Below, piece by piece: positions 1 through 26,630 of a stretch of 36,774 nucleotides of DNA. The DNA is from a virus (taxonomy: Duplodnaviria > Heunggongvirae > Uroviricota > Caudoviricetes). The notes under the pieces are model-generated. The model was given only the letters and a program-made list of their open reading frames with translations. It was not told the origin of the DNA and did not search any database. The DNA is taken from IMG/VR virus record IMGVR_UViG_2639762884_000004; one strand, 5' to 3'. The position numbers and the translations under genes were made by a program. Each line of letters begins with the position of its first letter. The first letter of the stretch is position 1.

Positions 1-1053
1 TTACGGGGTAATGCCAACCGCTGCCGCCACTTTGTCGCCACTTGGCAGCGTTGCCAGAGGATTGAAACGGAGCGCCGTTTCCAGATGATCCGGTGCCAGA
101 TGTGCGTAACGCATAGTCATTTTTATATCGTGGTGTCCGAGAATTTTTTGTAAGGCCAGAATGTTTCCACCCGACATCATGAAGTGCGCCGCAAACGTAT
201 GGCGCAGAACGTGTGTGAGTTGACCGCGAGGGAGCACGATAGACGTTTTTTCCATCACGGATAAAAATTGAAAATAGCAGTCTGTGAAGAAATTGAACCC
301 ATCAAGCGCCATGATCTCTTCGTAAAGCTCTTTACTGATAGGGATGCTTCTGTTTTTCTTCCCCTTCGTTCTTACAAAGGTAATTCGGTATTTGGTCACC
401 TGTGAGCGGGTAAGATTTACGGCTTCTCGCCAGCGTGCGCCTGTGCTTAAGCATATCTTAACTACCAGTGCCAGAATTGGGTCCTGACGTTTGCAATCAG
501 CTAGTAATTCAACAATCTGCTCATGGGTAAGCCATGCCATCTCTTTTTCTGCGATGGTGAATTTTCGCATGTTCTCCAGTGGGTTCGGATACGACCATTC
601 GCCCAGGCGGGATAGTTCGCTAAAAACACTACTTAGATAGCTTTGCTCCAGGTTAATGGTGACCGGGCTTGCTCCTTTCTTCCATTTCTCACTGAAGTAG
701 ATCTCACCTGTCAGGCGTTTATCTCGATAGTGGGCAAACATTTTAGAGGTTAGATCAGTTGCAAGGGGATTGCCCAGAGCGTCAACCATCAGCAGCAATT
801 TGTCATAGACATGCTGCCCAGCAGTCAGAGATTTACCATGTAGTTTGAACCATAGCTCAACCACGTCTTTCAGTGTTCGACGATCCACTGATTCACCCAG
901 CCAGGGCTTTGCTTCGGTTTCTTCCATCGTGTGACGCTCAAAAGCCAGTGCTTCGCCTTTGGTGGCGAATTGTTTACGCACACGACGCCCACTACGTCCG
1001 GCGGGGTAACATTCGCAAAGCCATTTTCCTGTGGTGAGTTTTCGTACTGCCAT
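1..1053 (-). CDS. int: Tyrosine integrase (P2/186 Int-like)
   Basis: 350-aa ORF; C-terminal catalytic region HTFAAHFMMSGG...LGHHDIKMTMRYAHL is typical of tyrosine recombinases; located at the prophage end next to the att repeat. Confidence 0.9.
   Translation of the reverse strand: MAVRKLTTGKWLCECYPAGRSGRRVRKQFATKGEALAFERHTMEETEAKPWLGESVDRRTLKDVVELWFKLHGKSLTAGQHVYDKLLLMVDALGNPLATDLTSKMFAHYRDKRLTGEIYFSEKWKKGASPVTINLEQSYLSSVFSELSRLGEWSYPNPLENMRKFTIAEKEMAWLTHEQIVELLADCKRQDPILALVVKICLSTGARWREAVNLTRSQVTKYRITFVRTKGKKNRSIPISKELYEEIMALDGFNFFTDCYFQFLSVMEKTSIVLPRGQLTHVLRHTFAAHFMMSGGNILALQKILGHHDIKMTMRYAHLAPDHLETALRFNPLATLPSGDKVAAAVGITP
19..40. repeat. Putative attL core (22-bp direct repeat, copy 1), lying inside the 3' end of int
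   Basis: CGCTGCCGCCACTTTGTCGCCA; matches 33920-33941 at 21/22 positions; flanking sequence on either side does not match. Confidence 0.7.
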
Positions 1054-1058
1054 AATAA

Positions 1059-1078
1059 AGCCCTCATATCAGAGGGCT
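1059..1078 (-). terminator. GC-rich hairpin (AGCCCTC-N6-GAGGGCT) followed on the minus strand by a U-rich tract, immediately upstream of the int start codon
   Basis: 7-bp stem, 6-nt loop; minus-strand RNA reads stem then UUUAUUAUG. It overlaps the GAGGG that would serve as the int ribosome-binding site. Confidence 0.45.
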
Positions 1079-1094
1079 AAATTTAACTGTATGT

Positions 1095-1109
1095 TTGACC
1101 AGTGGTCAA
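1095..1109. promoter_or_regulatory. Perfect 15-bp palindrome TTGACCA-G-TGGTCAA between the KAP gene and int
   Basis: Perfect 7-1-7 inverted repeat; a 1-nt loop rules out an RNA hairpin, so a dimeric protein-binding site is the likelier reading. Confidence 0.35.
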
Positions 1110-1139
1110 TGTATGGTTTAGTTTATTCAAACAATGCTT

Positions 1140-2657
1140 TTAATCAAATGATGTGGCCAGTTCAATTAATTCAATGTAATTATGTAAGGCATAAAAAGAT
1201 GTATTCAGACCATTCTCTATAAGGGCTCCTTGCAAATACTTTATAGCTGTATCACCATCAATAGGGCCTTGTTGAGATATAATCATTAGTGAATTTTGCC
1301 CATTGTTTTTTATACTTGATTTAAGCATGTTTATATTATTAATAAAATACAATGCAACATCTAAGTAATTTATTAATGTTAAATTTATTTTGGGCTCGAT
1401 CTGTGAGATGAATAATCTACTGCTCGCCGTTCTATAGATATAATTGACACCTATTCTTTGCTGATTTGTATCAAGATTTAATTCAAGGATGGCTTGAGAA
1501 ACACCTTTTAAATTGGAGCTTTGCTTTATCGAATCAGTGAAACGTTGTGCTGCATTTCTTCGACCAATTAGTCCATCTATAATTTGACGATCCTTATCAT
1601 ATATAATCATTAGCGAAATTATAAAAATATAATCTACTTTCTTTTTGACTAAATCAGATTTAAGAATGTCTATTAACCTTTCAGTATTTCGGATTGAGTC
1701 TCTTAGATTTAACCCAAATGCTTCAAATACGTTGGAAATATTTATTGAAAAGTCTTCTAATGTTGCTGTTAGTGGGTATGTTTTTGATGTGATATTTTCA
1801 AAATCGGTACCAATATAATCACCAACAACACCATTAATTAAATCTTTAAGTTCAGGTTGTTTTAAAGTAAATCTTCTATGAAAAAAACGGCCTAAATAGT
1901 CATTTGCGGAAAAATCATTACCGTAAACATTCTTGATTGAATGTTGTAATTGATCTGTGTTAGTAGCAATAATAAAGACAAAATTTTTAATATCGAATAT
2001 ATGTTTAACAATCTCTAAAAGAGAAATTGCATAATCTGGCCTGCATCTGTCTAATTCATCTATAAAGATAAATATAGGACATGAAAAACTATTTTCATAT
2101 GCCAACCTAGACCATAACGTTAGTTCTTTTTTTAATACCTTAATGCTCTTCAGTTTTTCCTGGTGTTCCTTCAGCATTATTAATGAGGCTTCTTTGGCTA
2201 TATCACCTACATTATCTACTCCTGCATAAGTCTTGATTAGGCCAGATATGATTTCAGGTAGAACACCTTTTGTAAAGCGTCCGATAGCATGGCCGCTTTG
2301 TATCAATCGAGCATCAAGTTTTCCTGCATATGTTTGCAATTGTTGTGACAAAGAAGAAAAAAGGGTTAAAAATGCATCATCAGAAAAGTCTTGCTTCCAG
2401 GCATCAATGTAAACGCATGGGTGTGCATCTTTTATTGAGTTATAAAATCTCTTTATGAAAAAACTTTTACCAGCTCCCCATTCTGCATTAAGGTTGATTA
2501 CCGTGTTGTTCTTTTGCCCCTTTTCCTTAAGATAAAAATATAGATATTCTGCATAGTGTCTCCGATTAAGTTTGTCTTTGGAAAGAATTTCCTCTTCGTC
2601 GTCTAATATAAAGGTAGTTTCTTCATCCCAGTTCCAATTACAATCACCACATTTCAC
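1140..2657 (-). CDS. KAP-family P-loop NTPase (AT-rich cargo gene)
   Basis: 505 aa; Walker A AEWGAGKSFF and Walker B/KAP signature IFIFIDELDRCRP; GTG start with GGAG 7 nt upstream; only 25 nt after the CI-paralog stop; markedly AT-rich relative to the phage core; no obvious transmembrane insert. Confidence 0.7.
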   Translation of the reverse strand: MKCGDCNWNWDEETTFILDDEEEILSKDKLNRRHYAEYLYFYLKEKGQKNNTVINLNAEWGAGKSFFIKRFYNSIKDAHPCVYIDAWKQDFSDDAFLTLFSSLSQQLQTYAGKLDARLIQSGHAIGRFTKGVLPEIISGLIKTYAGVDNVGDIAKEASLIMLKEHQEKLKSIKVLKKELTLWSRLAYENSFSCPIFIFIDELDRCRPDYAISLLEIVKHIFDIKNFVFIIATNTDQLQHSIKNVYGNDFSANDYLGRFFHRRFTLKQPELKDLINGVVGDYIGTDFENITSKTYPLTATLEDFSINISNVFEAFGLNLRDSIRNTERLIDILKSDLVKKKVDYIFIISLMIIYDKDRQIIDGLIGRRNAAQRFTDSIKQSSNLKGVSQAILELNLDTNQQRIGVNYIYRTASSRLFISQIEPKINLTLINYLDVALYFINNINMLKSSIKNNGQNSLMIISQQGPIDGDTAIKYLQGALIENGLNTSFYALHNYIELIELATSFD

Positions 2658-2682
2658 TATGAAGTCTCCATGAAAAATTTAC

Positions 2683-3606
2683 TTAATGTAAACAACTTAT
2701 AATAACTTTTGCAATAAACTCAATGTCTGTAAGCGAACATTCAAAAGAGTGATTTTGGGATGAAATATAAACTCGTCCTTTAGGTAGTCGAGTTATCATT
2801 CTAAATGAATTCTCTCCATCAATATTTACTAGCCACTTACCATCATGTACATCTTTAAAACCCATTTCACATATTAATTCAGAGTCTTCGGTAGATACTA
2901 CGAATGCATTTTTTAAATTGGAAGGTAGAAAGCATGGGTCAAATAAATATGAGCCATCATTTATTAACTTGCCATTGATTAATACTTTTTTCACTAATGT
3001 TAAAGTATCTTTATTTTTTGCGTTTTTCATTTCTCCTGTACCAAATGAAATCCATTCAATAGAATGGCCCGTTTCTATTGCACACTGCAAAACCCAGTCT
3101 GCAGGAAAAATGTCACGCATGTATCGTGTGGCTAATGTGCTTTTTGAAATACCTAGGTGATCAGCTAATGCTTGGTGCGTTTTGTAACCGTAAGCCTCGA
3201 CAATTCGTTCTATTGTTGCCTTACCCCCTCGGTTAAAATTCATGAGTTTTTCATTATCGAACTTTATAGTGGGAATGTATACTTCATTGCAAAGGCCATT
3301 AACGGCATGTTTTTCAGAATATTGCTCTGATGAAGGAGCAGTATCTGAACCAAGAACTAACCATTCAATTGATGCTCCTGTTTCTATGGAACATATAACA
3401 ACCCAATCTGCAGGAAAGGTATTACGTGCATATCTGTTGGCCATAGTACTTTGGGAAATACCTAGATGATTACATAATGCCTGTCGTGACTTGAAGCCAT
3501 AGGCTAGGAGTATACGCTCAATAACTTTTTGCCCTCCACGATTCTGCATAACTATTGCTTTCAGATCGTTTTTGATATGGCTAAATTTTAATTTTTGAGT
3601 TGACAT
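2683..3606 (-). CDS. CI-repressor paralog with two tandem CI-type N-terminal HTH domains and a CI-like C-terminal domain
   Basis: 307 aa. Residues about 20-90 and 125-190 each resemble the cI N-terminal domain; domain 2 shares the helix segment ISKSTLATRYMRD with cI exactly. C-terminal part aligns with the cI C-terminal domain (FLPSNLKNAFVV versus FLPSTLKNPFVI; DGKWLVNIDGE...ITRLPKGRV versus DGKWVISIDAE...ITRLPGGRI). Confidence 0.75.
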   Translation of the reverse strand: MSTQKLKFSHIKNDLKAIVMQNRGGQKVIERILLAYGFKSRQALCNHLGISQSTMANRYARNTFPADWVVICSIETGASIEWLVLGSDTAPSSEQYSEKHAVNGLCNEVYIPTIKFDNEKLMNFNRGGKATIERIVEAYGYKTHQALADHLGISKSTLATRYMRDIFPADWVLQCAIETGHSIEWISFGTGEMKNAKNKDTLTLVKKVLINGKLINDGSYLFDPCFLPSNLKNAFVVSTEDSELICEMGFKDVHDGKWLVNIDGENSFRMITRLPKGRVYISSQNHSFECSLTDIEFIAKVIISCLH

Positions 3607-3625
3607 ATTTTTTACACCACAACAA

Positions 3626-3641
3626 ATGCTTTACCAAGCAT
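3626..3641. promoter_or_regulatory. Palindrome ATGCTT-TACC-AAGCAT in the 50-bp gap between cI and the CI paralog
   Basis: 6-bp arms, 4-bp spacer; candidate operator or weak attenuator hairpin (AT-rich stem followed by a U/G-rich stretch on the minus strand). Confidence 0.3.
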
Positions 3642-3656
3642 AAAAACATTCCTATA

Positions 3657-4226
3657 TTACTCAAAGTACTTAACTGTTATGCTTATAATTTTTCCAATAA
3701 TTTCGATTTCTTCTTTTTTACATTCGAAAGCCCTATTTCCACCTTCAACTAAGATTCTTCCACCAGGTAAACGAGTGATATCGCGGATTGTTACTTCGGC
3801 ATCAATACTTATTACCCATTTGCCGTCACGAATATCGTTAAACTCTTTATCGCAAATAAAAACGGAATTGTTATCGGTGATTACAAACGGATTTTTGAGC
3901 GTAGATGGTAGAAATTCTTTATCGAAAATATAAAAACCATCTTCCTGCAAGGTTCCATCAGATAATACATATTTAACGACTTCCATAGTATTTGTATTAC
4001 CTGAAGTTTGCTTTGAACCATGTCCGGTCGTGAGCCAGTTAAGCGAGGCGCCCGTTTCAAGTGCGCACTGGATTACCCATTCAGCAGGGAATGAGTCACG
4101 CATATAGCGTGTGGCGAGAGTACTTTTAGAGATTCCTAAGTGATCGCACAACGCCTGTCGAGTCTTGAAGCCATATGCTTCTACCATGCGCTCTATAGCG
4201 CCTCGTCCGCCTTTCTCCAAATTCAT
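3657..4226 (-). CDS. cI: Immunity repressor CI (186-type, HTH N-terminal domain plus oligomerisation C-terminal domain)
   Basis: About 190 aa; divergent from apl across a short switch region; ATG at 4226 has GGAG 6 nt upstream, and an in-frame GTG at 4232 is an alternative start. Confidence 0.8.
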   Translation of the reverse strand: MNLEKGGRGAIERMVEAYGFKTRQALCDHLGISKSTLATRYMRDSFPAEWVIQCALETGASLNWLTTGHGSKQTSGNTNTMEVVKYVLSDGTLQEDGFYIFDKEFLPSTLKNPFVITDNNSVFICDKEFNDIRDGKWVISIDAEVTIRDITRLPGGRILVEGGNRAFECKKEEIEIIGKIISITVKYFE

Positions 4227-4250
4227 GGTCACTCCAAGTGAACTTTTGTC

Positions 4251-4347
4251 TTGACGATTTCACTATGCGATCGTATGTTTATGATGTTCACAAAATACAA
4301 ACGATCCGTATTCGTCCTGATTAATCAACATTAAACGAGGAATGTTG
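4251..4347 (+). promoter_or_regulatory. Lysis-lysogeny switch region: pR-like promoter (TTGACG-17-TATGTT, 4251-4279) and inverted repeat CAACATT-N8-AATGTTG (4326-4347) spanning the apl ribosome-binding site
   Basis: Good sigma70-like hexamers oriented toward apl; a 7-bp inverted repeat encloses GAGG. Operator identity is not established. Confidence 0.45.
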
Positions 4348-4351
4348 CATC

Positions 4352-4573
4352 ATGAAACCTAACATTTCAATCACTCTTACCACGCCTCATGTGACTATTG
4401 AACGTTATAGCGAGCTGACAGGGCTATCCATCGATACTATCAATGACATGTTGGCTGATGGACGTCTTATCCGTCACCGTCTGCGGAAAGATAAAAAACG
4501 CGAAAAAGTGATGATCAACATAGCAGCCATGACCGTTGATGCGCTTTCAGAATGCAATCTAAACCTTAATTAG
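4352..4573 (+). CDS. apl: Apl/Cox-family excisionase and transcriptional regulator (small HTH protein)
   Basis: 73 aa; first gene of the rightward early operon, divergent from cI; HTH-like segment [21 protein letters not shown]. Confidence 0.6.
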
Positions 4574-6156: not shown

Positions 6157-7010
6157 GCACCATCCTGAAATGGGCGGGTAATAAAACCGCCATTATGCCA
6201 GAACTGAAAAAATACCTTCCTGCTGGCCCGCGACTGGTTGAACCTTTCGCGGGTTCTTGTGCTGTGATGATAGAGACGGATTACCCCAGCTATCTTGTTG
6301 CGGATATTAATCCTGATTTAATCAACCTCTATAAAAAGGTTGCTGCTGATTGCGAGGCGTTTATATCTCGTGCCAGAGCTTTATTTGAGGAAGCAAACAG
6401 GGAGGTGGCTTATTACAACATAAGGCAGGAGTTTAATTACTCCACTGAAATTACTGATTTCATGAAAGCGGTATATTTCCTGTATCTCAATCGTCATGGT
6501 TACCGTGGGTTATGTCGCTATAACAAGAGCGGGCATTTCAACATTCCCTACGGGAATTATAAAAATCCGTATTTCCCTGAAAAAGAAATTCGCAAATTTG
6601 CAGAAAAAGCCCAGCGAGCAACGTTTATCTGCGCCAGCTTTGATGAAACGCTGGCGATGTTGAAGGCGGGGGATGTGGTGTATTGCGATCCGCCTTATGA
6701 CGGTACGTTTTCCGGCTATCACACTGATGGCTTCACTGAGGATGACCAGTATCACCTGGCATCCGTTCTTGAACATCGATCATCTGAAGGTCATCCGGTC
6801 ATTGTTTCTAACAGTGACACATCCCTGATTCGTTCGCTGTATCGCAATTTCACTCACCACTACATCAAGGCAAAACGCAGCATCGGCGTGTCGGCTGGCG
6901 AGAGTAAATCTGCAACAGAAATCATTGCTGTTTCCGGGGCGCGCTGCTGGGTGGGATTTGATCCTTCGCGTGGCGTGGATAGTTCTGCTGTGTACGAGGT
7001 GCGTGTATGA
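6153..7010 (+). CDS. dam: Orphan DNA adenine methyltransferase (Dam-like)
   Basis: 285 aa from ATG 6153; LKWAGNK near the N-terminus, catalytic DPPY (VYCDPPYDG), and [16 protein letters not shown] region, all as in Dam; no adjacent restriction endonuclease. Confidence 0.85.
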
Positions 7011-9421
7011 GTCATGATGATATGAGCAACTCTAGCGGCTTTAACGAGGCCGCTGCAGCATTTTCATGGAACGGCCCGAAAAAGGCCATTAACCCTTATC
7101 TGGACCAGGCGGAAGTTGCGCCGGAGTCTGCACTTTCAAACATGATCACTTTGTACGCTGCCGATAACGAGCAGGAACAGCTGCGCCGCGATGCACTGAG
7201 TGAGCAGGTCTGGGAGCGTTATTTCTTTAATGAATCCCGTGATCCTGTCCAGCGCGAAATGGAGCAGGATAATCTCATTAGTCGGGCAAAGCTGGCGCAT
7301 GAGCAGCAGCGTTTTAACCCGGACATGGTCATTCTGGCGGACGTCAGCGCCCAGCCCACCCACATCAGCAAGCCGCTGATGCAACGTATCGAATACTTCA
7401 GCAGCCTGGGCAGGCCAAAGGCTTATTCCCGCTATTTGCGTGAGACGATTAAGTCATGTCTGGAGCGACTGGAGTATGTACGCGACAGTCAGCTATCCGC
7501 TTCTTTCCGTTTTATGGCAAGCCATCAAGGGCTTGAGGGCCTGCTGATCCTGCCTGAAATGAGTCAGGATCAGGTAAAACGCCTGTCCACCTTGGTAGCA
7601 GCGCATATGAGCATGTGTCTTGAGGCCGCTTGTGGTGATTTGTATGCCTCCGATGACGTTAAGCCAGAAGAAATCCGCAAGACATGGGAAAAGGTGGCAG
7701 CGGAAACCCTGCGTCTGGATGTTATCCCGCCTGCGTTTGAGAAACTCCGTCGGAAAAGAAACCGCCGCAAACCCGTGCCCTATGAACTCATACCGGGTTC
7801 GCTGGCACGTATGCTTTGCGCCGACTGGTGGTATCGAAAATTGTGGAAGATACGTTGCGAATGGCGGGAAGAGCAGTTGCGTGCTGTCTGCCTGGTCAGC
7901 AAAAAAGCATCTCCCTATGTCAGCTATGAAGCAGTGACGCATAAACGTGAGCAGCGCCGCAAGTCGCTGGAGTTTTTCCGTTCTCATGAACTGGTGAACG
8001 AAGACGGCGACACGCTGGATATGGAAGACGTGGTAAACGCCAGCAGCAGCAACCCGGCGCACCGCCGCAATGAGATGATGGCCTGTGTTAAAGGTCTGGA
8101 GCTTATCGCGGAAATGCGTGGTGACTGCGCCGTTTTCTACACCATTACCTGTCCGTCACGTTTCCATTCTACGCTCAATAACGGCAGACCAAACCCAACC
8201 TGGACAAATGCGACGGTAAGACAAAGCAGCGATTATCTGGTCGGCATGTTTGCTGCATTTCGTAAGGCTATGCACAAAGCCGGGTTGCGCTGGTATGGCG
8301 TGCGGGTGGCTGAGCCGCACCATGACGGTACTGTGCACTGGCATCTCATGTGTTTCATGCGCAAAAAAGACCGCCGCGCCATTACTGCATTGTTGCGTAA
8401 GTTTGCCATCCGTGAAGACCGCGAGGAACTGGGCAATAACACTGGTCCACGCTTTAAGTCTGAGCTGATAAACCCGCGCAAAGGAACGCCGACAAGCTAC
8501 ATCGCGAAATACATCAGTAAGAACATTGACGGACGTGGTCTGGCTGGCGAGATCAGCAAGGAAACGGGTAAATCCCTGCGTGATAACGCCGAATACGTTA
8601 ATGCCTGGGCGTCTCTGCATCGTGTTCAGCAGTTCCGCTTCTTTGGTATTCCGGGGCGTCAGGCGTACCGTGAACTTCGCTTGCTGGCTGGTCAGGCGGC
8701 AAGGCAACAGGGTGACAAAAAAGCAGGTGCGCCGGTACTGGATGACCCGCGCCTTGATGCCATCCTGGCTGCCGCTGATGCTGGCTGTTTTGCCACCTAC
8801 ATCATGAAGCAGGGCGGCGTACTGGTTCCCCGCAAATATCACCTTATCAGAACAGCTTATGAAATTAACGAAGAGCCGACCGCTTATGGCGATCACGGTA
8901 TTCGTATTTATGGCATCTGGTCACCCATTGTACAGGGCAAGATCTGCACTCATGCAATGAAATGGAAAATGGTTCGTAAGGTCGTTGACGTTCAGGAGGC
9001 GGCAGCCGACCAGGGCGCTTGCGCCCCTTGGACTCGTGGCAATAACTGTCCCCTTGCTGAAAATTTGAACCAACAAGGGAAAGACAAATCAGCTGATGGG
9101 GACTCCAGAACGGATATTACCCGTATGAATGACAAGGAGTTGCACGATTACCTGCACAGTATGAGCAAAAAAGAGCGCCGGGAACTGGCTGCAAGGTTAC
9201 GCCAGGTGAAACCGAAACGGCGTAAAGACTACAAACAGCGAATTACAGACCATCAGCGACAGCAGCTCGTCTATGAACTGAAGTCCAGGGGATTTGATGG
9301 CAGCGAGAAAGAAGTCGATTTGCTCCTTCGCGGCGGCAGTATTCCGTCAGGAGCAGGCCTGCGTATCTTCTATCGGAACCAGCGTCTGAAGGAAGATGAT
9401 AAGTGGCGGAACCTATATTAA
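7007..9421 (+). CDS. A: Rolling-circle replication initiator (P2 gpA-like)
   Basis: 804 aa; HUH motif in [10 protein letters not shown] and tyrosine motif YIAKYISK; position matches P2 A / 186 repA. Confidence 0.85.
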
Positions 9422-9515
9422 TTACGCGGGTTAACAATTCGTGCTCTTAATAATACCAGGCATATCAGGCCGATGAACGTAAAAAAACGTTTTACATCAG
9501 TAAGATTATTATATA

Positions 9516-9531
9516 CTGTAAATATAAACAG
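9516..9531 (+). promoter_or_regulatory. LexA (SOS) box CTGT-N8-ACAG overlapping the -10 of a promoter for the downstream small operon
   Basis: TACTGTAAATATAAACAGTG; TTTACA -35 candidate at 9491-9496 with 17-bp spacing to TACTGT. Confidence 0.7.
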
Positions 9532-9573
9532 TGGTTATGTGTACAGTATTGTTTTGGTGTCATAGGAGGAAAG

Positions 9574-9762
9574 ATGCAGGACTATTTTTTGGAGTCTTTG
9601 AAGCTCCAGCGCATTGATTTTTTTCTTAAGCTTGTAGCGGCTAGTGAGTGTAGTGATGAAGAGAAGGGGCTGGCTCTGCAGTGGGTTTCTGAATTGACTG
9701 ATGAACTCATGGCAAAAATCAGAAGCCACGAATACAACCGCTCAATGGATGTCATCAGCTGA
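9574..9762 (+). CDS. SOS-regulated small protein, possible antirepressor (186 tum-like position)
   Basis: 62-aa ORF with strong AGGAGG ribosome-binding site directly downstream of the LexA box. The protein is much shorter than the size I recall for 186 Tum, so the functional assignment rests on position only. Confidence 0.4.
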   Translation: MQDYFLESLKLQRIDFFLKLVAASECSDEEKGLALQWVSELTDELMAKIRSHEYNRSMDVIS

Positions 9763-9772
9763 GGTGACTTTT

Positions 9773-10006
9773 ATGCGCATTGAAATAATGATCGATAAAG
9801 AGCAGAAGATTAGCCAGTCTACCCTGGACGCCCTTGAATCCGAGCTTTACCGCAATCTGCGCCCCCTGTATCCCAAAACGGTAATTCGCATTCGCAAAGG
9901 TAGCTCTAACGGTGTGGAACTAACCGGACTGCAACTGGATGAAGAAAGAAAACAAGTGATGAAAATTATGCAGAAGGTGTGGGAGGACGACAGCTGGCTG
10001 CATTAA
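9773..10006 (+). CDS. dinI: DinI-family protein
   Basis: 77 aa from ATG 9773 (GAGGTG upstream); MRIEIMIDKEQ...ALESELYRNL...VWEDDSWL resembles DinI; second gene of the LexA-boxed operon. Confidence 0.75.
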   Translation: MRIEIMIDKEQKISQSTLDALESELYRNLRPLYPKTVIRIRKGSSNGVELTGLQLDEERKQVMKIMQKVWEDDSWLH

Positions 10007-10014
10007 GAAATGTT

Positions 10015-10044
10015 GCCCCCAGGAGGATTCATTCTGATGGGGGC
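10015..10044 (+). terminator. Possible terminator hairpin after the dinI operon
   Basis: GCCCCCA / TGGGGGC 7-bp stem with a long 16-nt loop, followed by TAGTTTG; weak. Confidence 0.3.
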
Positions 10045-10198
10045 TAGTTTGGGCAATGAGTGAAATAAGGCGTAAGGTGGGCGGTTATTTTGATAAGTGA
10101 TCGTCCGCTTTGTGTCAGAAGCAGAAGTGGGAGTGTCTGAGACTCTCTAAAAGTTGATGATTCACTTACAAAACCATTTTCCTGATGGATGCTTACAC

Positions 10199-10534
10199 TT
10201 ACGAATGATCATTCTGTTTAGTCTTCATGAGAAAATCCCGAATCTTTGCCAAGTTTGAATTTTCGGGGATTGAATCCATGTACGGATCACGCTCAAACAC
10301 TAATTGCTCAGATTCAACGAAAGCCTGCCACTCTACTGGGTCTAGCTCAAATCCCATTGCTGTCATATCACTTTCATCTTCCCCCTCGATCCAGTGGACT
10401 AAATAAAACAATTCATCATCAGGAGAATCATCCTCACCATCAACAATATCAACATCGGTTACAGTGATACGTAGGGTGGGATCGATTTTTGAGACATAAA
10501 TTCCTAACTGTGGTATAGGGGGAATATTGTTCAT
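10199..10534 (-). CDS. Strongly acidic small protein of unknown function (AT-rich cargo gene)
   Basis: 111 aa, rich in D/E with few basic residues; AAGGAG 7 nt upstream of the ATG; opposite strand to its neighbours. Confidence 0.55.
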   Translation of the reverse strand: MNNIPPIPQLGIYVSKIDPTLRITVTDVDIVDGEDDSPDDELFYLVHWIEGEDESDMTAMGFELDPVEWQAFVESEQLVFERDPYMDSIPENSNLAKIRDFLMKTKQNDHS

Positions 10535-10913
10535 GGAAACTCCTTTTATTGGTGTTTGCTATTTGAATAAAAATACGCCAAACAGAGTGTTAACTGTGAA
10601 TATGGAAAGAATCGTTGTAAGTACCCCGCTTAGGTGTCCCATTCTATTTTAGAGGTTCTCGTGCATATGGATTATGTTATCTGAAAGTTAACTTCCGCTT
10701 CCCGTTCACAGCGAACATTCATCTTTGTAAACCCGTATGATCCGTTTTTCAAGTGGCCATTCAGATACGGATTTTTACTTCTTTGACAGTGCATGACTAT
10801 GCTGCATGAAATCGCATGATCGATTGAGGATCGTCTTTGCTCAGATCCGCCAGAACTGGCGGGCTTTTGCTCATGTCATGCATGTGCATGAAAACCACTG
10901 CATAAAGCGGGCA

Positions 10914-10932
10914 GGCGTGGCGGGGATACGAT
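10914..10932. other. Candidate cos (cohesive-end) motif inside a ~470-bp noncoding region
   Basis: GGCGTGGCGGGGATACGAT; the first 13 nt match my recollection of the 186/P2 19-nt cohesive end GGCG(T/A)GGCGGGGAAAGCA(T/C). Recollection only, not verified. Confidence 0.4.
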
Positions 10933-11001
10933 TGCGCGCAGAAGATTATTATTGGTACACTGTCGGTGACTCTCTACGCAGATCTTACACATTAATTTCT
11001 A

Positions 11002-11814
11002 ATGGGGCATGCTATGATCTTTCTAAGTCATAATCACCGTGACAAAAGGTTTGTAAGTGTTATAGCGGAAAAACTAGCAGATGTTTATGGGCGTGATAAC
11101 GTATTCTACGATTCTTGGTCTATCCAACCCGGAGAGGGTATTATTGACAAGATGAATTTAGGAATGGAGAATGTATCGTTCTTTTTCTTTTTTGTCACAG
11201 AAAATAGTTTGGCAAGTAACATGGTAAAAATGGAATGGCAAAATGCTTTAATTAAGGCATCGTCCGGGAAGTGTAAATTTATACCAATACGTTGCCAGAA
11301 TATATCCTTGCCTGCTCTGCTTACTCAAACGCTATATATTGATCTTTATTCGTATGGGATCGATGTGGCAATAAGACAAATTATAGATGTCATTAATCAA
11401 CAAAATACGTATATTCCTAATCCTGAGAAGTATTCAAACCTCTCCTATGATATTAAGGATGGTGATGGGGGTAAGATAGTGAAATTATCAGCAATGGATT
11501 TTTTAGAACCAATTGCTGATTTTATGATGATTATGGATAATACAATTAAGCATGATGATGTTGTTGTTATGGTCAATGGAGAAAGCACATTCACTCAGGG
11601 GTTTATTGAAAATGCATCTTTAGAAAATGGTATGAAAGTAAGTGGTGCCACTGTTGGCCTAAATCGGGGGTTAACACCAACGATGCCAATGTATGTTTCT
11701 CTTAGGTTAAAGGATGGTTCACCTTTGAATATATTTGCGGTGCTACATCGAGTAAGTACCGAGCGTTATGCTCCTATACCACATAAAGCCGATGATGCCT
11801 TTAGAGTAAAATAA
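11002..11814 (+). CDS. TIR-domain protein with an uncharacterised C-terminal domain (AT-rich cargo gene)
   Basis: 270 aa (alternative ATG at 11014). N-terminal IFLSHNHRDK followed by NVFYDSWSIQPGEGI and FFFFFVTENSLASNMVKMEW fits a bacterial TIR fold; C-terminal ~140 aa unrecognised. Confidence 0.6.
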   Translation: MGHAMIFLSHNHRDKRFVSVIAEKLADVYGRDNVFYDSWSIQPGEGIIDKMNLGMENVSFFFFFVTENSLASNMVKMEWQNALIKASSGKCKFIPIRCQNISLPALLTQTLYIDLYSYGIDVAIRQIIDVINQQNTYIPNPEKYSNLSYDIKDGDGGKIVKLSAMDFLEPIADFMMIMDNTIKHDDVVVMVNGESTFTQGFIENASLENGMKVSGATVGLNRGLTPTMPMYVSLRLKDGSPLNIFAVLHRVSTERYAPIPHKADDAFRVK

Positions 11815-11823
11815 AAAGCAATA

Positions 11824-11849
11824 TGGTGGCTATATAATTAAGGCCACCA
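11824..11849. terminator. Bidirectional terminator hairpin between the convergent TIR gene and portal gene
   Basis: TGGTGGC-N12-GCCACCA; U-rich tract on the minus strand (TATTGCTTTTTATT) and A/T-rich on the plus side. Confidence 0.45.
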
Positions 11850-11858
11850 ATTTATATC

Positions 11859-12887
11859 TCATAAACAATAGGATGAAAATGCAATAACTTTCTCACCCAG
11901 CCAATGGTTTAACTCCTCCATGCGTTTCTGTAATGGCAAAAGTTCATTGCGCACAAACACATTTGCGGCCTTCTCCACATCCCCAAACCCTCCAACATTA
12001 TTAGGCATAATCCCCATCATTTGCGGCGGCACGCGGTGCGCAGCCATCATGTCATCGCGGCTCACGTTCTTGATATTCAAAAACTCATCCTTCGCCGCCA
12101 CCTCTGACAACGGGATAATCTGAAGCCCGTCCTTTTTGCCGTTAGGCGAGTACATAAACAGGTTGCGGAAGTTACCCGGACCTTTGGCACTTTTCATTGC
12201 ATTGCGGAGGTTGTTCACGTCCTCCTGGTTCTGCGCAGCATCGGTCATGTACATGATGAAGCCTGCATGACTACCGTTAATGTAATACTTGCGGCGGAAC
12301 AGCGTGGCGGACTCATTGAGCAGGGCGGACGGAATGGCAGAAAGATAGCCGGGCAGGCCGTAGATCTCCTGGTTAATGTCCGGTTCCATCAGATGAAAAA
12401 TGCTGCCTTTCGTGAACTGATACGGCTGGGTTGTCATACCGTATTGCACAAACCAGTAGGTATCCAGGTCTAACCCGCGTCGGGTGTATTTTGCCAGAGC
12501 AGGCTCAAGGGCGATAACTTCACCGAAGCGGTTCGTGCGTTTCTCCAGGTAGGCGTTACCAAATACCAGATAGTCCTGCACAAAACGTGAAAAAGCCTGC
12601 TGGCTGAGCAGCGGGTGAGGGATGTAGGTACTGGTCAGAATGTTGCATTTCACCGCAATTGGTGAACTGTGATGCACGGCGGCGCGGAAGGTGCGCGCCA
12701 GTCCGTCAAAGCTTACTGGCGGCTCATACCAGCGATCTGTCTGTACGCATTCCACATAGTCCAGCAGTTCTCGGCGGTCCAGAACAGGAACGGGATCGCC
12801 GAAGCTGAATGCTTCGGCTGTAGTTTGACTTTTAAGCTGGATCTGTTTCGTCGCCGCAGCGCGGTTCTTCTTACTCTTTCCCATCAA
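11859..12887 (-). CDS. Q: Portal protein (P2 gpQ-like)
   Basis: 342 aa; size and position beside the terminase ATPase match P2 Q (about 344 aa). Confidence 0.85.
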   Translation of the reverse strand: MMGKSKKNRAAATKQIQLKSQTTAEAFSFGDPVPVLDRRELLDYVECVQTDRWYEPPVSFDGLARTFRAAVHHSSPIAVKCNILTSTYIPHPLLSQQAFSRFVQDYLVFGNAYLEKRTNRFGEVIALEPALAKYTRRGLDLDTYWFVQYGMTTQPYQFTKGSIFHLMEPDINQEIYGLPGYLSAIPSALLNESATLFRRKYYINGSHAGFIMYMTDAAQNQEDVNNLRNAMKSAKGPGNFRNLFMYSPNGKKDGLQIIPLSEVAAKDEFLNIKNVSRDDMMAAHRVPPQMMGIMPNNVGGFGDVEKAANVFVRNELLPLQKRMEELNHWLGEKVIAFSSYCL

Positions 12888-26057: not shown

Positions 26058-26630
26058 ATGATCATGCTTATTGGCTATGTACGCGTGTCAACAAATGACC
26101 AGAACACCGATTTGCAACGTAATGCACTGAACTGCGCGGGATGTGAGCGGATTTTTGAGGACAAAATCAGTGGCACTAAGTCCGACAGACCGGGGCTGAA
26201 AAAACTACTCAGGACACTATCGGCAGGAGACACGCTGGTTGTCTGGAAGCTGGACAGGTTGGGGCGCAGTATGCGGCATCTTGTTACGCTGATAGAAGAG
26301 TTGCGCCAGCGTGGTGTGAATTTCAGAAGCCTGACTGACAGTATTGATACCAGTACCCCAATGGGCCGTTTCTTTTTTCATGTCATGGGTGCCCTGGCTG
26401 AAATGGAACGCGAACTGATAGTTGAACGTACCAGGGCAGGGCTGGCTGCAGCTCGTGCCAAAGGCAGAGTAGGTGGACGCCGTCCTAAGTTGACCACCGA
26501 ACAGTGGGCACAGATTGGGCGTTTACTCGAGGCCGGAGAATCAAGACAGCGTATTGCACAGATTTTTGATGTAGGCGTTTCTACCATTTATAGAAAATTT
26601 CCGGCAAATAAGATCAATGAATCCCCCTGA
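26058..26630 (+). CDS. Serine DNA invertase (Hin/Gin/Pin/Cin family)
   Basis: 190 aa; N-terminal catalytic region LIGYVRVSTNDQNTDLQ and C-terminal HTH; sits in the P2 Z/fun position between G and FI. Confidence 0.9.
   Translation: MIMLIGYVRVSTNDQNTDLQRNALNCAGCERIFEDKISGTKSDRPGLKKLLRTLSAGDTLVVWKLDRLGRSMRHLVTLIEELRQRGVNFRSLTDSIDTSTPMGRFFFHVMGALAEMERELIVERTRAGLAAARAKGRVGGRRPKLTTEQWAQIGRLLEAGESRQRIAQIFDVGVSTIYRKFPANKINESP

Follow-up and report, generated by a model that had tools for sequence, protein, structure and literature searches.

We analyzed a 36,774-nucleotide stretch of DNA (IMG/VR record IMGVR_UViG_2639762884_000004; the whole stretch is hereafter the window) that represents a complete P2/186-like prophage. 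At its left end, four leftward genes follow one another: a short cI, a second cI whose product carries two helix-turn-helix (HTH) domains (the tandem cI), a gene for a KAP-family nucleoside triphosphatase (NTPase), and the integrase gene int. The KAP gene is an autonomous, stand-alone occupant of the slot between cI and int, and we consider it reasonably probable that the locus consists of a KAP NTPase defense candidate, expressed in the lysogen and acting by itself, beside a displaced mosaic immunity repressor. The KAP NTPase and the tandem CI would then be independent of each other, having become neighbors through recombination in the cI-int slot of a 186-like prophage. A preliminary description of the same DNA had taken the two as one module, a DNA-binding sensor or regulator paired with an NTPase.

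The KAP gene occurs without a second repressor

A search of 5.8 billion proteins returned 908 KAP homologues, and we looked up the genomic contexts of eleven of them, at 34-79% identity, in E. coli, Klebsiella, Enterobacter, Yersinia, Brenneria, and metagenomes (loci L010/L011, L013/L014, L015-17, L018, L029, L031, L032, L040, Yersinia L020, and Brenneria L006). In all eleven, the KAP gene lies between the immunity repressor and int of a 186-like prophage. The order is apl, switch, cI (186-188 aa, one HTH), KAP, int in nine of the eleven, with 0-29 nt between cI and KAP; one other open reading frame (ORF) separates the two genes in Yersinia and two do so in Brenneria. A second intact cI was found in none of these contexts outside the window's lineage (0/11), and the proposal that sensor and NTPase form a conserved two-gene system thus fails. 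The tandem CI and KAP do not recur together across independent lineages: in the metagenome locus L013, a second cI after KAP is a pseudogene, and tandem CIs that are the sole repressor of their phage adjoin genes other than KAP.

More distant homologues also persist where cI is missing or decayed. The KAP gene adjoins a GIY-YIG gene in an Enterobacter prophage remnant with no cI; in Pectobacterium it follows a 160-aa ORF, and all that is left of cI in its vicinity is a 190-nt remnant; in the Ewingella chromosome it stands alone among housekeeping genes, without cI; and a further copy is located inside a Mu-like prophage, again with no cI. Because homologues sit either with the phage's own cI only or without an intact cI, the KAP gene is autonomous. 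Its usual neighbor is the phage's own repressor because that repressor borders the slot, and we attribute the KAP-after-CI pattern to this position in the operon. The preliminary description had not recognized the pairing of tandem CI and KAP as a described system, and rightly so, since it is a one-off recombinant arrangement in a single prophage lineage and has no place among known systems for that reason.

Two ORFs accompany KAP in some lineages. The 160-aa ORF (L006 4310-4792; L023 4470-4952) is 91% identical between Brenneria and Pectobacterium, and a 327/338-aa ORF with hydrophobic, membrane-like segments (L006 4814-5830; L020 3986-4969) is 49% identical between Yersinia and Brenneria. 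We considered both as general KAP partners and rejected them, since neither the window nor the closest KAP relatives have them; they may be further cargo or lineage-specific partners.

A soluble KAP NTPase with a variable C-terminal domain

Profile searches bore out the KAP and CI-type domains of the preliminary description. The KAP protein matches KAP_NTPase (PF07693) over residues 32-303 (E = 3e-45, 155 bits against a cut-off of 20) and phrog_8614 (E = 3e-64), and the tandem CI contains two Phage_CI_repr stretches and a Phage_CI_C domain (E = 2e-55 and 1.5e-25). The two nucleotide-binding signatures read from the sequence, AEWGAGKS and DELDRC, were likewise found as described. Residues W60, G61, G63, and K64 of the former and the run I199-P207 spanning the latter are invariant in 38 homologues, and the P-loop core holds many invariant residues between positions 10 and 268. 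The NTPase had also been described as having no obvious membrane insert, and this held: no transmembrane segment was detected, the maximum 19-residue Kyte-Doolittle mean being 1.43, in a region of buried beta-strand. Residues 95-190 form a long insert, modelled as soluble helices in an AF2 (AlphaFold2) model with a pLDDT (predicted local distance difference test score) of 82.7.

The original definition of the KAP family, by Aravind and colleagues in 2004, reportedly included transmembrane helices inserted in the P-loop domain. The KAP protein of the window is a soluble variant, and departs from the classical definition by the absence of these helices.

The C-terminal alpha/beta domain diverges faster than the core. 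Identity to the same homologues drops from 63% in the core to 46% in the C-terminal domain in one comparison and from 51% to 33% in another, and the nonsynonymous differences between E. coli copies of KAP cluster at residues 409-462. In the same comparison of copies, int showed 17 synonymous and 0 nonsynonymous codon differences. We regard the C-terminal domain as the putative sensor or effector part of the protein.

Comparison with known defense systems

The search with PADLOC assigned the KAP protein to PDC-S20, a predicted single-gene defense candidate of the KAP NTPase type, and returned no match for the tandem CI. The KAP protein matches model PDLC04959 over residues 20-389 (E = 4.7e-77), the last ~115 residues being left out of the match; three further PDC-S20 models also match, and the gene agrees with PDC-S20 as a single-gene soluble KAP NTPase. 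The homologue in Brenneria matches PDC-S20 as well (E = 9e-83). Literature searches for PDC-S20 and for WP_000649630, the RefSeq accession of the KAP protein, found no paper that names either.

Single-protein KAP NTPases are known to protect against phages. These include EF_KAP and three KAP proteins from gut metagenomes (PMC13552941), and Reve, a single-protein KAP defense from P4 satellites (PMC13586616); EF_KAP requires its Walker B motif (PMC13552941). Compared by description only, these proteins share with the window protein a KAP P-loop domain fused to a region without known fold, and carriage on a mobile element; each is itself active alone. EF_KAP differs in having two transmembrane helices, of which the window protein has none.

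PifA of the F plasmid, QatA, and RdrA have a KAP/STAND-like P-loop core in common with the window protein, and their matches are confined to this core. We rejected identity with each of the three. The PADLOC match to PifA (E = 1.4e-15) covers only profile positions 15-261 of 720. QatA is matched at 4e-13 in PADLOC, with 39.7 bits against a cut-off of 600 for the NCBIfam model, and the neighbors here are cI and int, without QatBCD. RdrA, the ring-forming ATPase of RADAR, is the best PDB fold match, a distant one (E = 1e-6, TMq 0.35-0.38), and the locus has no gene for the RdrB deaminase. The KAP gene is thus a further candidate of a known kind, PDC-S20, and the prophage cargo hotspot that holds it is likewise of a known type.

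The cI-int slot holds varying cargo

Among close relatives of the window, the flanks of the slot are conserved and its content is not. On either side of the slot, Klebsiella phage KP12 and Escherichia phage vB_EcoM-813R9 share 90-98% identity with the window, and in the slot itself they carry a 558-aa gene that matches PD-lambda-1 (E = 7e-120). PD-lambda-1 is SNIPE, a validated membrane-bound nuclease that cuts phage DNA during injection (PMC13190303). The slot holds unrelated genes of unassigned function in 4LV2017 (349 aa) and in the E. coli WP4-S18 prophage (324 aa); elsewhere, it holds unassigned genes of 160 and 338 aa, and in phage 186 it holds nothing. The int DNA of the window is 96-98% identical to that of KP12, 813R9, 4LV2017, and the WP4-S18 prophage, and the homology of these four to the window stops at 1114-1118, directly upstream of the int leader. 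Conserved flanks with cargo that varies, and that includes both KAP and PD-lambda-1/SNIPE, mark the slot as a hotspot.

A defense hotspot between cI and int has been described in K139-like P2-related phages of Vibrio (Rousset et al. 2022, PMC9122126), and 8% of P2 defense systems lie between int and primase (NAR 2026, PMC13586616). The slot in the window has the same position between immunity repressor and integrase as the published cI-int hotspot, and its content likewise varies among relatives. The published cI-int hotspot is, however, that of Vibrio K139-like phages; for E. coli P2-like phages, the report concerns a minor int-to-primase site, and KAP is not named.

Stacking of both repressor copies and cargo between cI and int has also arisen independently in locus L013 (JGI metagenome 3300003848). 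Its second, nearly full-length cI (6841-7373) is interrupted by stops and frameshifts, and beyond it lie a gene with an 8xMP domain and two unassigned genes before int.

Expression in the lysogen

The preliminary description had started from the adjacency of cI and int in one leftward operon of P2/186-type phages, which agrees with the annotation of phage 186, where both genes belong to one lysogenic operon and have a 1-nt overlap. The DNA between cI and int in the window is real extra DNA because of this overlap in 186, and both genes described there are present, with the 50-nt and 25-nt gaps and at the positions given; a further gap of 86 nt separates the KAP stop from the int start. The G+C content is 0.27-0.38 across ~1050-3900, compared with ~0.46-0.55 in the flanks. 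Each gene had been credited with its own ribosome-binding site. This is secure for KAP, which has a clear GGAG 8 nt before its GTG start, and less so for the tandem cI, where the site is weak and only GGTG-like. A terminator scan found no convincing terminator between the four genes short cI, tandem cI, KAP, and int, and predicted none in the 50-nt junction ahead of the tandem cI. Because the 186 operon is laid out in this way and no convincing terminator intervenes, the KAP gene should be co-transcribed with cI from the lysogenic promoters, with its product expected in the lysogen.

Inspection of the sequence and the terminator scan both revealed a 7-bp, G+C-rich hairpin, AGCCCTC-tgatat-GAGGGCT followed by TTATT (1059-1078, minus strand), that ends directly ahead of the int ATG. 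It holds the int Shine-Dalgarno sequence in its 3' arm and is kept in all related phages. In the lysogen, the hairpin could act as an attenuator of transcription into int or else mask the translation of int.

The tandem CI is a displaced mosaic

Enterobacterales have a large class of tandem CIs, 290-330 aa in length. In the isolated phages 4LV2017 and ST11-OXA245phi3.1, and in many E. coli prophages, a member of this class is encoded at the switch as the only cI, next to cargo unrelated to KAP; tandem-HTH CIs serve as the sole immunity repressor in many P2-like phages of Klebsiella, E. coli, and Salmonella. We found no study of the tandem-HTH CI class in the literature. The tandem CI of the window is 61% identical over its full length to the CI of 4LV2017 (gp03), but it stands behind another cI and not at the switch. 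The CI of coliphage 186 is an immunity repressor that assembles as a 14-mer wheel. The tandem CI has the same Pfam domains and is 26-38% identical to it.

Two halves of the gene have different relatives. Window positions 42-3242, which comprise int, KAP, and tandem cI codons 122-307, are collinear with int-KAP-cI of L029 and L010 at 75-77% nucleotide identity. The collinearity ends at window position 3242 and L029 position 4413, the cI start of L029 being at 4412. Residues 122-307 are 68-72% identical to the L010 CI and 46-64% identical to the resident short CI (56% over residues 122-290); with sole tandem CIs, the C-terminal domain shares only 36-40% identity. Window positions 3068-3614, covering HTH1, linker, and HTH2, align with the 5' part of sole tandem cI genes at 78-79% DNA identity; this homology ends 8 nt upstream of the tandem cI ATG and resumes at 4338. 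By these alignments, the cI that relatives normally carry at the switch, ahead of KAP, has its orthologue in residues 122-307, and residues 1-121 (HTH1 and linker) come from the tandem-HTH CI class. The window copy thus differs from the rest of its class in joining the class HTH1 to the C-terminal domain of a single-HTH lineage. Codon M122 matches the ancestral start, and we considered an internal start there, which would give a short CI isoform; this is unlikely, there being no Shine-Dalgarno sequence in front.

Because 42-3242 is collinear with KAP-bearing relatives, the DNA that is extra relative to them is ~3243-4333, that is, HTH1 and linker, the short cI, and the switch. The AT-rich insert of about 2.5 kb that had been described between cI and int therefore stands as an AT-rich position of variable cargo, but its limits are not those of the extra DNA.

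Across nine diverse tandem CIs, the mean identity is 90% in HTH1, 76% in HTH2, 34% in the C-terminal domain, and 22% in the linker. From this conservation, the extra HTH1 seems to recognize something that heteroimmune phages have in common.

The position expected of an immunity repressor is held by the short CI, which is encoded by the first leftward gene, divergent from apl across the switch, and not by the tandem CI, whose gene follows the short cI after 50 nt and is not preceded by a switch. The short cI starts at 4226 in the RefSeq annotation. Its N-terminal domain is 87% identical to that of the sole cI of the relative L031, whose switch is nearly identical to that of the window and whose homologue of the apl/cox-like gene has a weak match to the Phage_Cox family. 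Most KAP-bearing relatives share another switch ("imm A") that is rich in TCCAAAAG repeats. As judged from sequence, the short cI and its switch accordingly belong to a different immunity type than those of most KAP-bearing relatives. Neither TCCAAAAG nor the 15-mer ATTCCAAAAGCGATC of the imm A switch occurs above chance in the window, although the true operators may differ. As the repeat motif is absent, the tandem CI has no obvious cognate site in its own prophage. The 186-type operator palindrome TTCAC-N5-GTGAA has four one-mismatch matches in the window against 1.3 expected, one of them at the switch; a scan of the switch for inverted repeats and an alignment of switch regions defined no operators.

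Occurrence and variation among copies

The block from short cI through tandem cI to KAP is present at >=99.2% identity (that is, at least 99.2%) in 17 of 5426 complete E. coli genomes, including the enteropathogenic E. coli (EPEC) strain O127:H6 E2348/69. In E2348/69 and the 16 other genomes, a prophage nearly identical to the window is inserted between rcdA/ybjJ and ybjL, and metagenome copies of the block have the same context. The tandem cI is intact in all 17 copies, which come from several continents and hosts. The spacer between tandem cI and KAP is identical in the five other copies compared, and the tandem cI of these copies differs by 1-3 nonsynonymous and 0-2 synonymous changes, too few for a selection test.

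Codon 144 of the tandem cI (3175-3177) encodes His in the window and Arg in the five other E. coli copies compared. The residue (in TRQAL, first helix of HTH2) is near-invariant: with a single exception, the aligned CI proteins have Arg here.

One of the 17 copies, L036 (NZ_JBRERE010000002.1), is on a 150-kb record labelled plasmid pE100181_149, and its int allele is clearly different, with 70 synonymous and 17 nonsynonymous codon differences. This points to transfer of the block by recombination to a different integrase backbone, unless the contig carries a wrong label.

A proposed history and mode of action

The simplest history, to judge from the alignments, is evidently that heteroimmune 186-like phages recombined, the crossovers being anchored in cI. 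An older cI-KAP-int operon would thereby have come to lie behind a new switch and repressor, and the old cI would have gained its extra N-terminal HTH in the process. The KAP protein would be made in the lysogen from the lysogenic promoters as single-gene cargo. It most likely acts against phages. By analogy with PifA, RdrA, and QatA and with the recently validated single-protein KAP defenses, its N-terminal P-loop module might drive NTP-dependent assembly or switching, and its variable C-terminal domain might recognize a phage product or produce the effect, a scheme also proposed for other defense NTPases of the KAP and STAND types. The displaced tandem CI may repress incoming phages of the old immunity type, or may be a recent relic. 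The earlier view of the locus as having the architecture of an anti-phage system is thereby kept in part: the NTPase is a plausible defense gene, given PDC-S20 and the presence of SNIPE in the slot of sibling phages, but the gene pair is not a module.

Several observations weigh against an autonomous KAP defense beside an independent repressor. The KAP protein has no recognizable effector domain, and it is without the transmembrane insert that is typical of KAP proteins and is present in EF_KAP and Tmn, both validated. PDC-S20 is one of 145 PDC predicted candidates (Payne et al., bioRxiv 10.1101/2024.01.29.577857). The KAP gene almost always follows a CI-type gene, so that a functional link to CI proteins in general is conceivable, and the intact tandem cI in 17 copies, 25 nt from KAP with identical spacers, makes a functional role conceivable too, even one with KAP. 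Finally, the imm A repeat is absent from the window, and the DNA specificity of the tandem CI is not deducible from its sequence.

Alternative explanations

The alternative that survives best concerns the repressor. The tandem CI may be a working second immunity determinant against 186-like phages of the ancestral-cI or the tandem-CI immunity type, with which the prophage would exclude at least two immunity groups competing for the rcdA-ybjJ attachment site. The protein is a full-length, uninterrupted homologue of sole immunity repressors, intact in 17/17 copies; its gene is part of the lysogenic operon and has no terminator ahead of it; phages that have the other switch type (L018, L029) integrate at the same E. 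coli site; and its HTH1 derives from the module that is 90% conserved across heteroimmune tandem CIs. On the other hand, its HTH2/N-terminal domain is closest to the imm A group, yet only at 69-74% compared with 78-91% within the group, and its HTH2 helix residues look hybrid. The few substitutions are mostly nonsynonymous and the window copy has His at R144, the comparable second cI in L013 has decayed, and the ribosome-binding site is weak. We hold a working second immunity to be possible, with the balance tilting somewhat against it.

The tandem CI might instead be a functionless, recent by-product of heteroimmune recombination that has not yet decayed. Its mosaic structure, its restriction to a single young lineage, the nonsynonymous excess together with R144H, the pseudogenized parallel in L013, and the lack of cognate operator-like repeats in the window are all consistent with a relic. 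No inactivating mutation is found in the 17 genomes, despite their spread over continents and hosts, and the substitutions are too few for a selection test; a functionless tandem CI is in our view rather unlikely.

The KAP protein might also have no anti-phage role and serve the phage life cycle (lysogeny control, excision, or DNA transactions) or constitute a selfish addiction module. In favor of this, the subfamily is known as predicted candidates only, an effector domain is lacking, and the gene keeps a constant position by cI and int in many phages. The gene is nonetheless dispensable, as siblings carry SNIPE or unrelated genes in the slot and 186 carries nothing; it is AT-rich, encodes a C-terminal domain that diverges rapidly, occurs by itself in a Mu-like prophage and at chromosomal sites, matches models built from genes embedded in defense systems, and is related to KAP proteins that are proven defenses. 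A KAP protein that serves only the phage or itself is therefore improbable.

It would be a long shot that the tandem CI has been kept through working with the cargo of its operon, either by broad cross-immunity via HTH1 or as a guard or decoy that triggers KAP. In the former version, the conserved HTH1 would recognize a target common to many heteroimmune 186-like phages; in the latter, the antirepressor of an incoming phage would inactivate the CI-shaped decoy, and the KAP NTPase would be triggered. Either, if true, would be a new way for a prophage to make an immune sensor from a spare repressor.

A single two-component defense or superinfection-exclusion system, in which the CI senses or regulates, for instance through detection of the antirepressor or DNA of an incoming phage, and the NTPase executes, is very unlikely: the genes are adjacent and co-oriented across a 25-nt gap, both are intact, the spacers are identical in all copies examined, and KAP genes of this family nearly always come directly after a CI-type gene, yet the pairing is confined to one near-clonal prophage lineage (the 17 genomes and the metagenome copies with the same context), all looked-up KAP homologues have the phage's own cI only, KAP persists without cI, tandem CIs pair with unrelated cargo, the tandem CI has no PADLOC match, and the mosaic at the nucleotide level accounts for the arrangement without invoking function.

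Implications of the locus

With an autonomous KAP candidate, EPEC E2348/69 and 16 further E. coli strains carry a membrane-free KAP NTPase in a lysogen-expressed slot, and E2348/69 is easily manipulated. The locus offers a ready test case for the PDC-S20 family and for KAP NTPases without a membrane anchor or known effector. It also illustrates the turnover of the cI-int slot, in which cI-anchored recombination moves cargo together with part of the repressor and can stack whole repressors, and its tandem-HTH CI class bears on how the wheel model of 186 CI generalizes. The locus does not overturn current understanding and is not a new kind of system.

Other features of the window

The features of the left end of the window are collected in Table 1.

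Table 1 Coordinates of features at the left end of the window
Feature	Position	Strand	Description
int	1..1053	-	P2/186-type tyrosine integrase, last gene of the leftward lysogenic operon; Int_N and Phage_integrase domains
int leader	1054..1118	-	Conserved; left boundary of variable DNA at ~1119
KAP gene	1140..2657	-	KAP-family P-loop NTPase, 505 aa, soluble, intact
C-terminal alpha/beta domain of KAP protein	1143..1760	-	Residues ~300-505, fast-evolving, without known fold match
Walker B region DELDRC	2043..2060	-	Residues 200-205 of KAP protein
Walker A AEWGAGKS	2463..2486	-	Residues 58-65 of KAP protein
Spacer tandem cI/KAP	2658..2682	-	25 nt, holds GGAG Shine-Dalgarno of KAP gene
Tandem cI	2683..3606	-	Mosaic tandem-HTH 186-type CI, 307 aa, intact, displaced from switch
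Tandem CI domains	HTH1 3349-3543; HTH2 3037-3231; C-terminal domain 2698-2994	-	HTH1 is residues 22-86; a linker lies between HTH1 and HTH2
Codon M122 of tandem cI	3241..3243	-	Matches start codon of ancestral single-HTH cI; no Shine-Dalgarno in front
Junction short cI stop/tandem cI start	3607..3656	-	50 nt
Short cI	3657..4232	-	Resident immunity repressor, single-HTH 186-type CI, 189-191 aa, at switch; Phage_CI_repr and Phage_CI_C domains
Lysis-lysogeny switch	4233..4351		pR-like promoter TTGACG-17-TATGTT at 4251-4279; aligns with switch regions of relatives
apl/cox-like gene	4352..4573	+	First gene of lytic operon

Elsewhere in the window, an AT-rich stretch at 9400-11900 contains a gene for a 270-aa TIR-domain protein (11002-11814, plus strand; Pfam TIR_2, E = 1e-22), whose PADLOC matches are weak (TIR-NLR, PDC-S66, and ThsB). 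The gene shares the canonical P2 gpA-portal hotspot with a DinI-like gene (9701-10006) and with small unassigned ORFs, and the prophage therefore has a second candidate defense cargo. A Hin/Cin-type serine invertase (Resolvase and HTH_7 domains; 26058-26630, plus strand) is encoded beside the tail-fiber genes, which suggests an invertible host-range segment.

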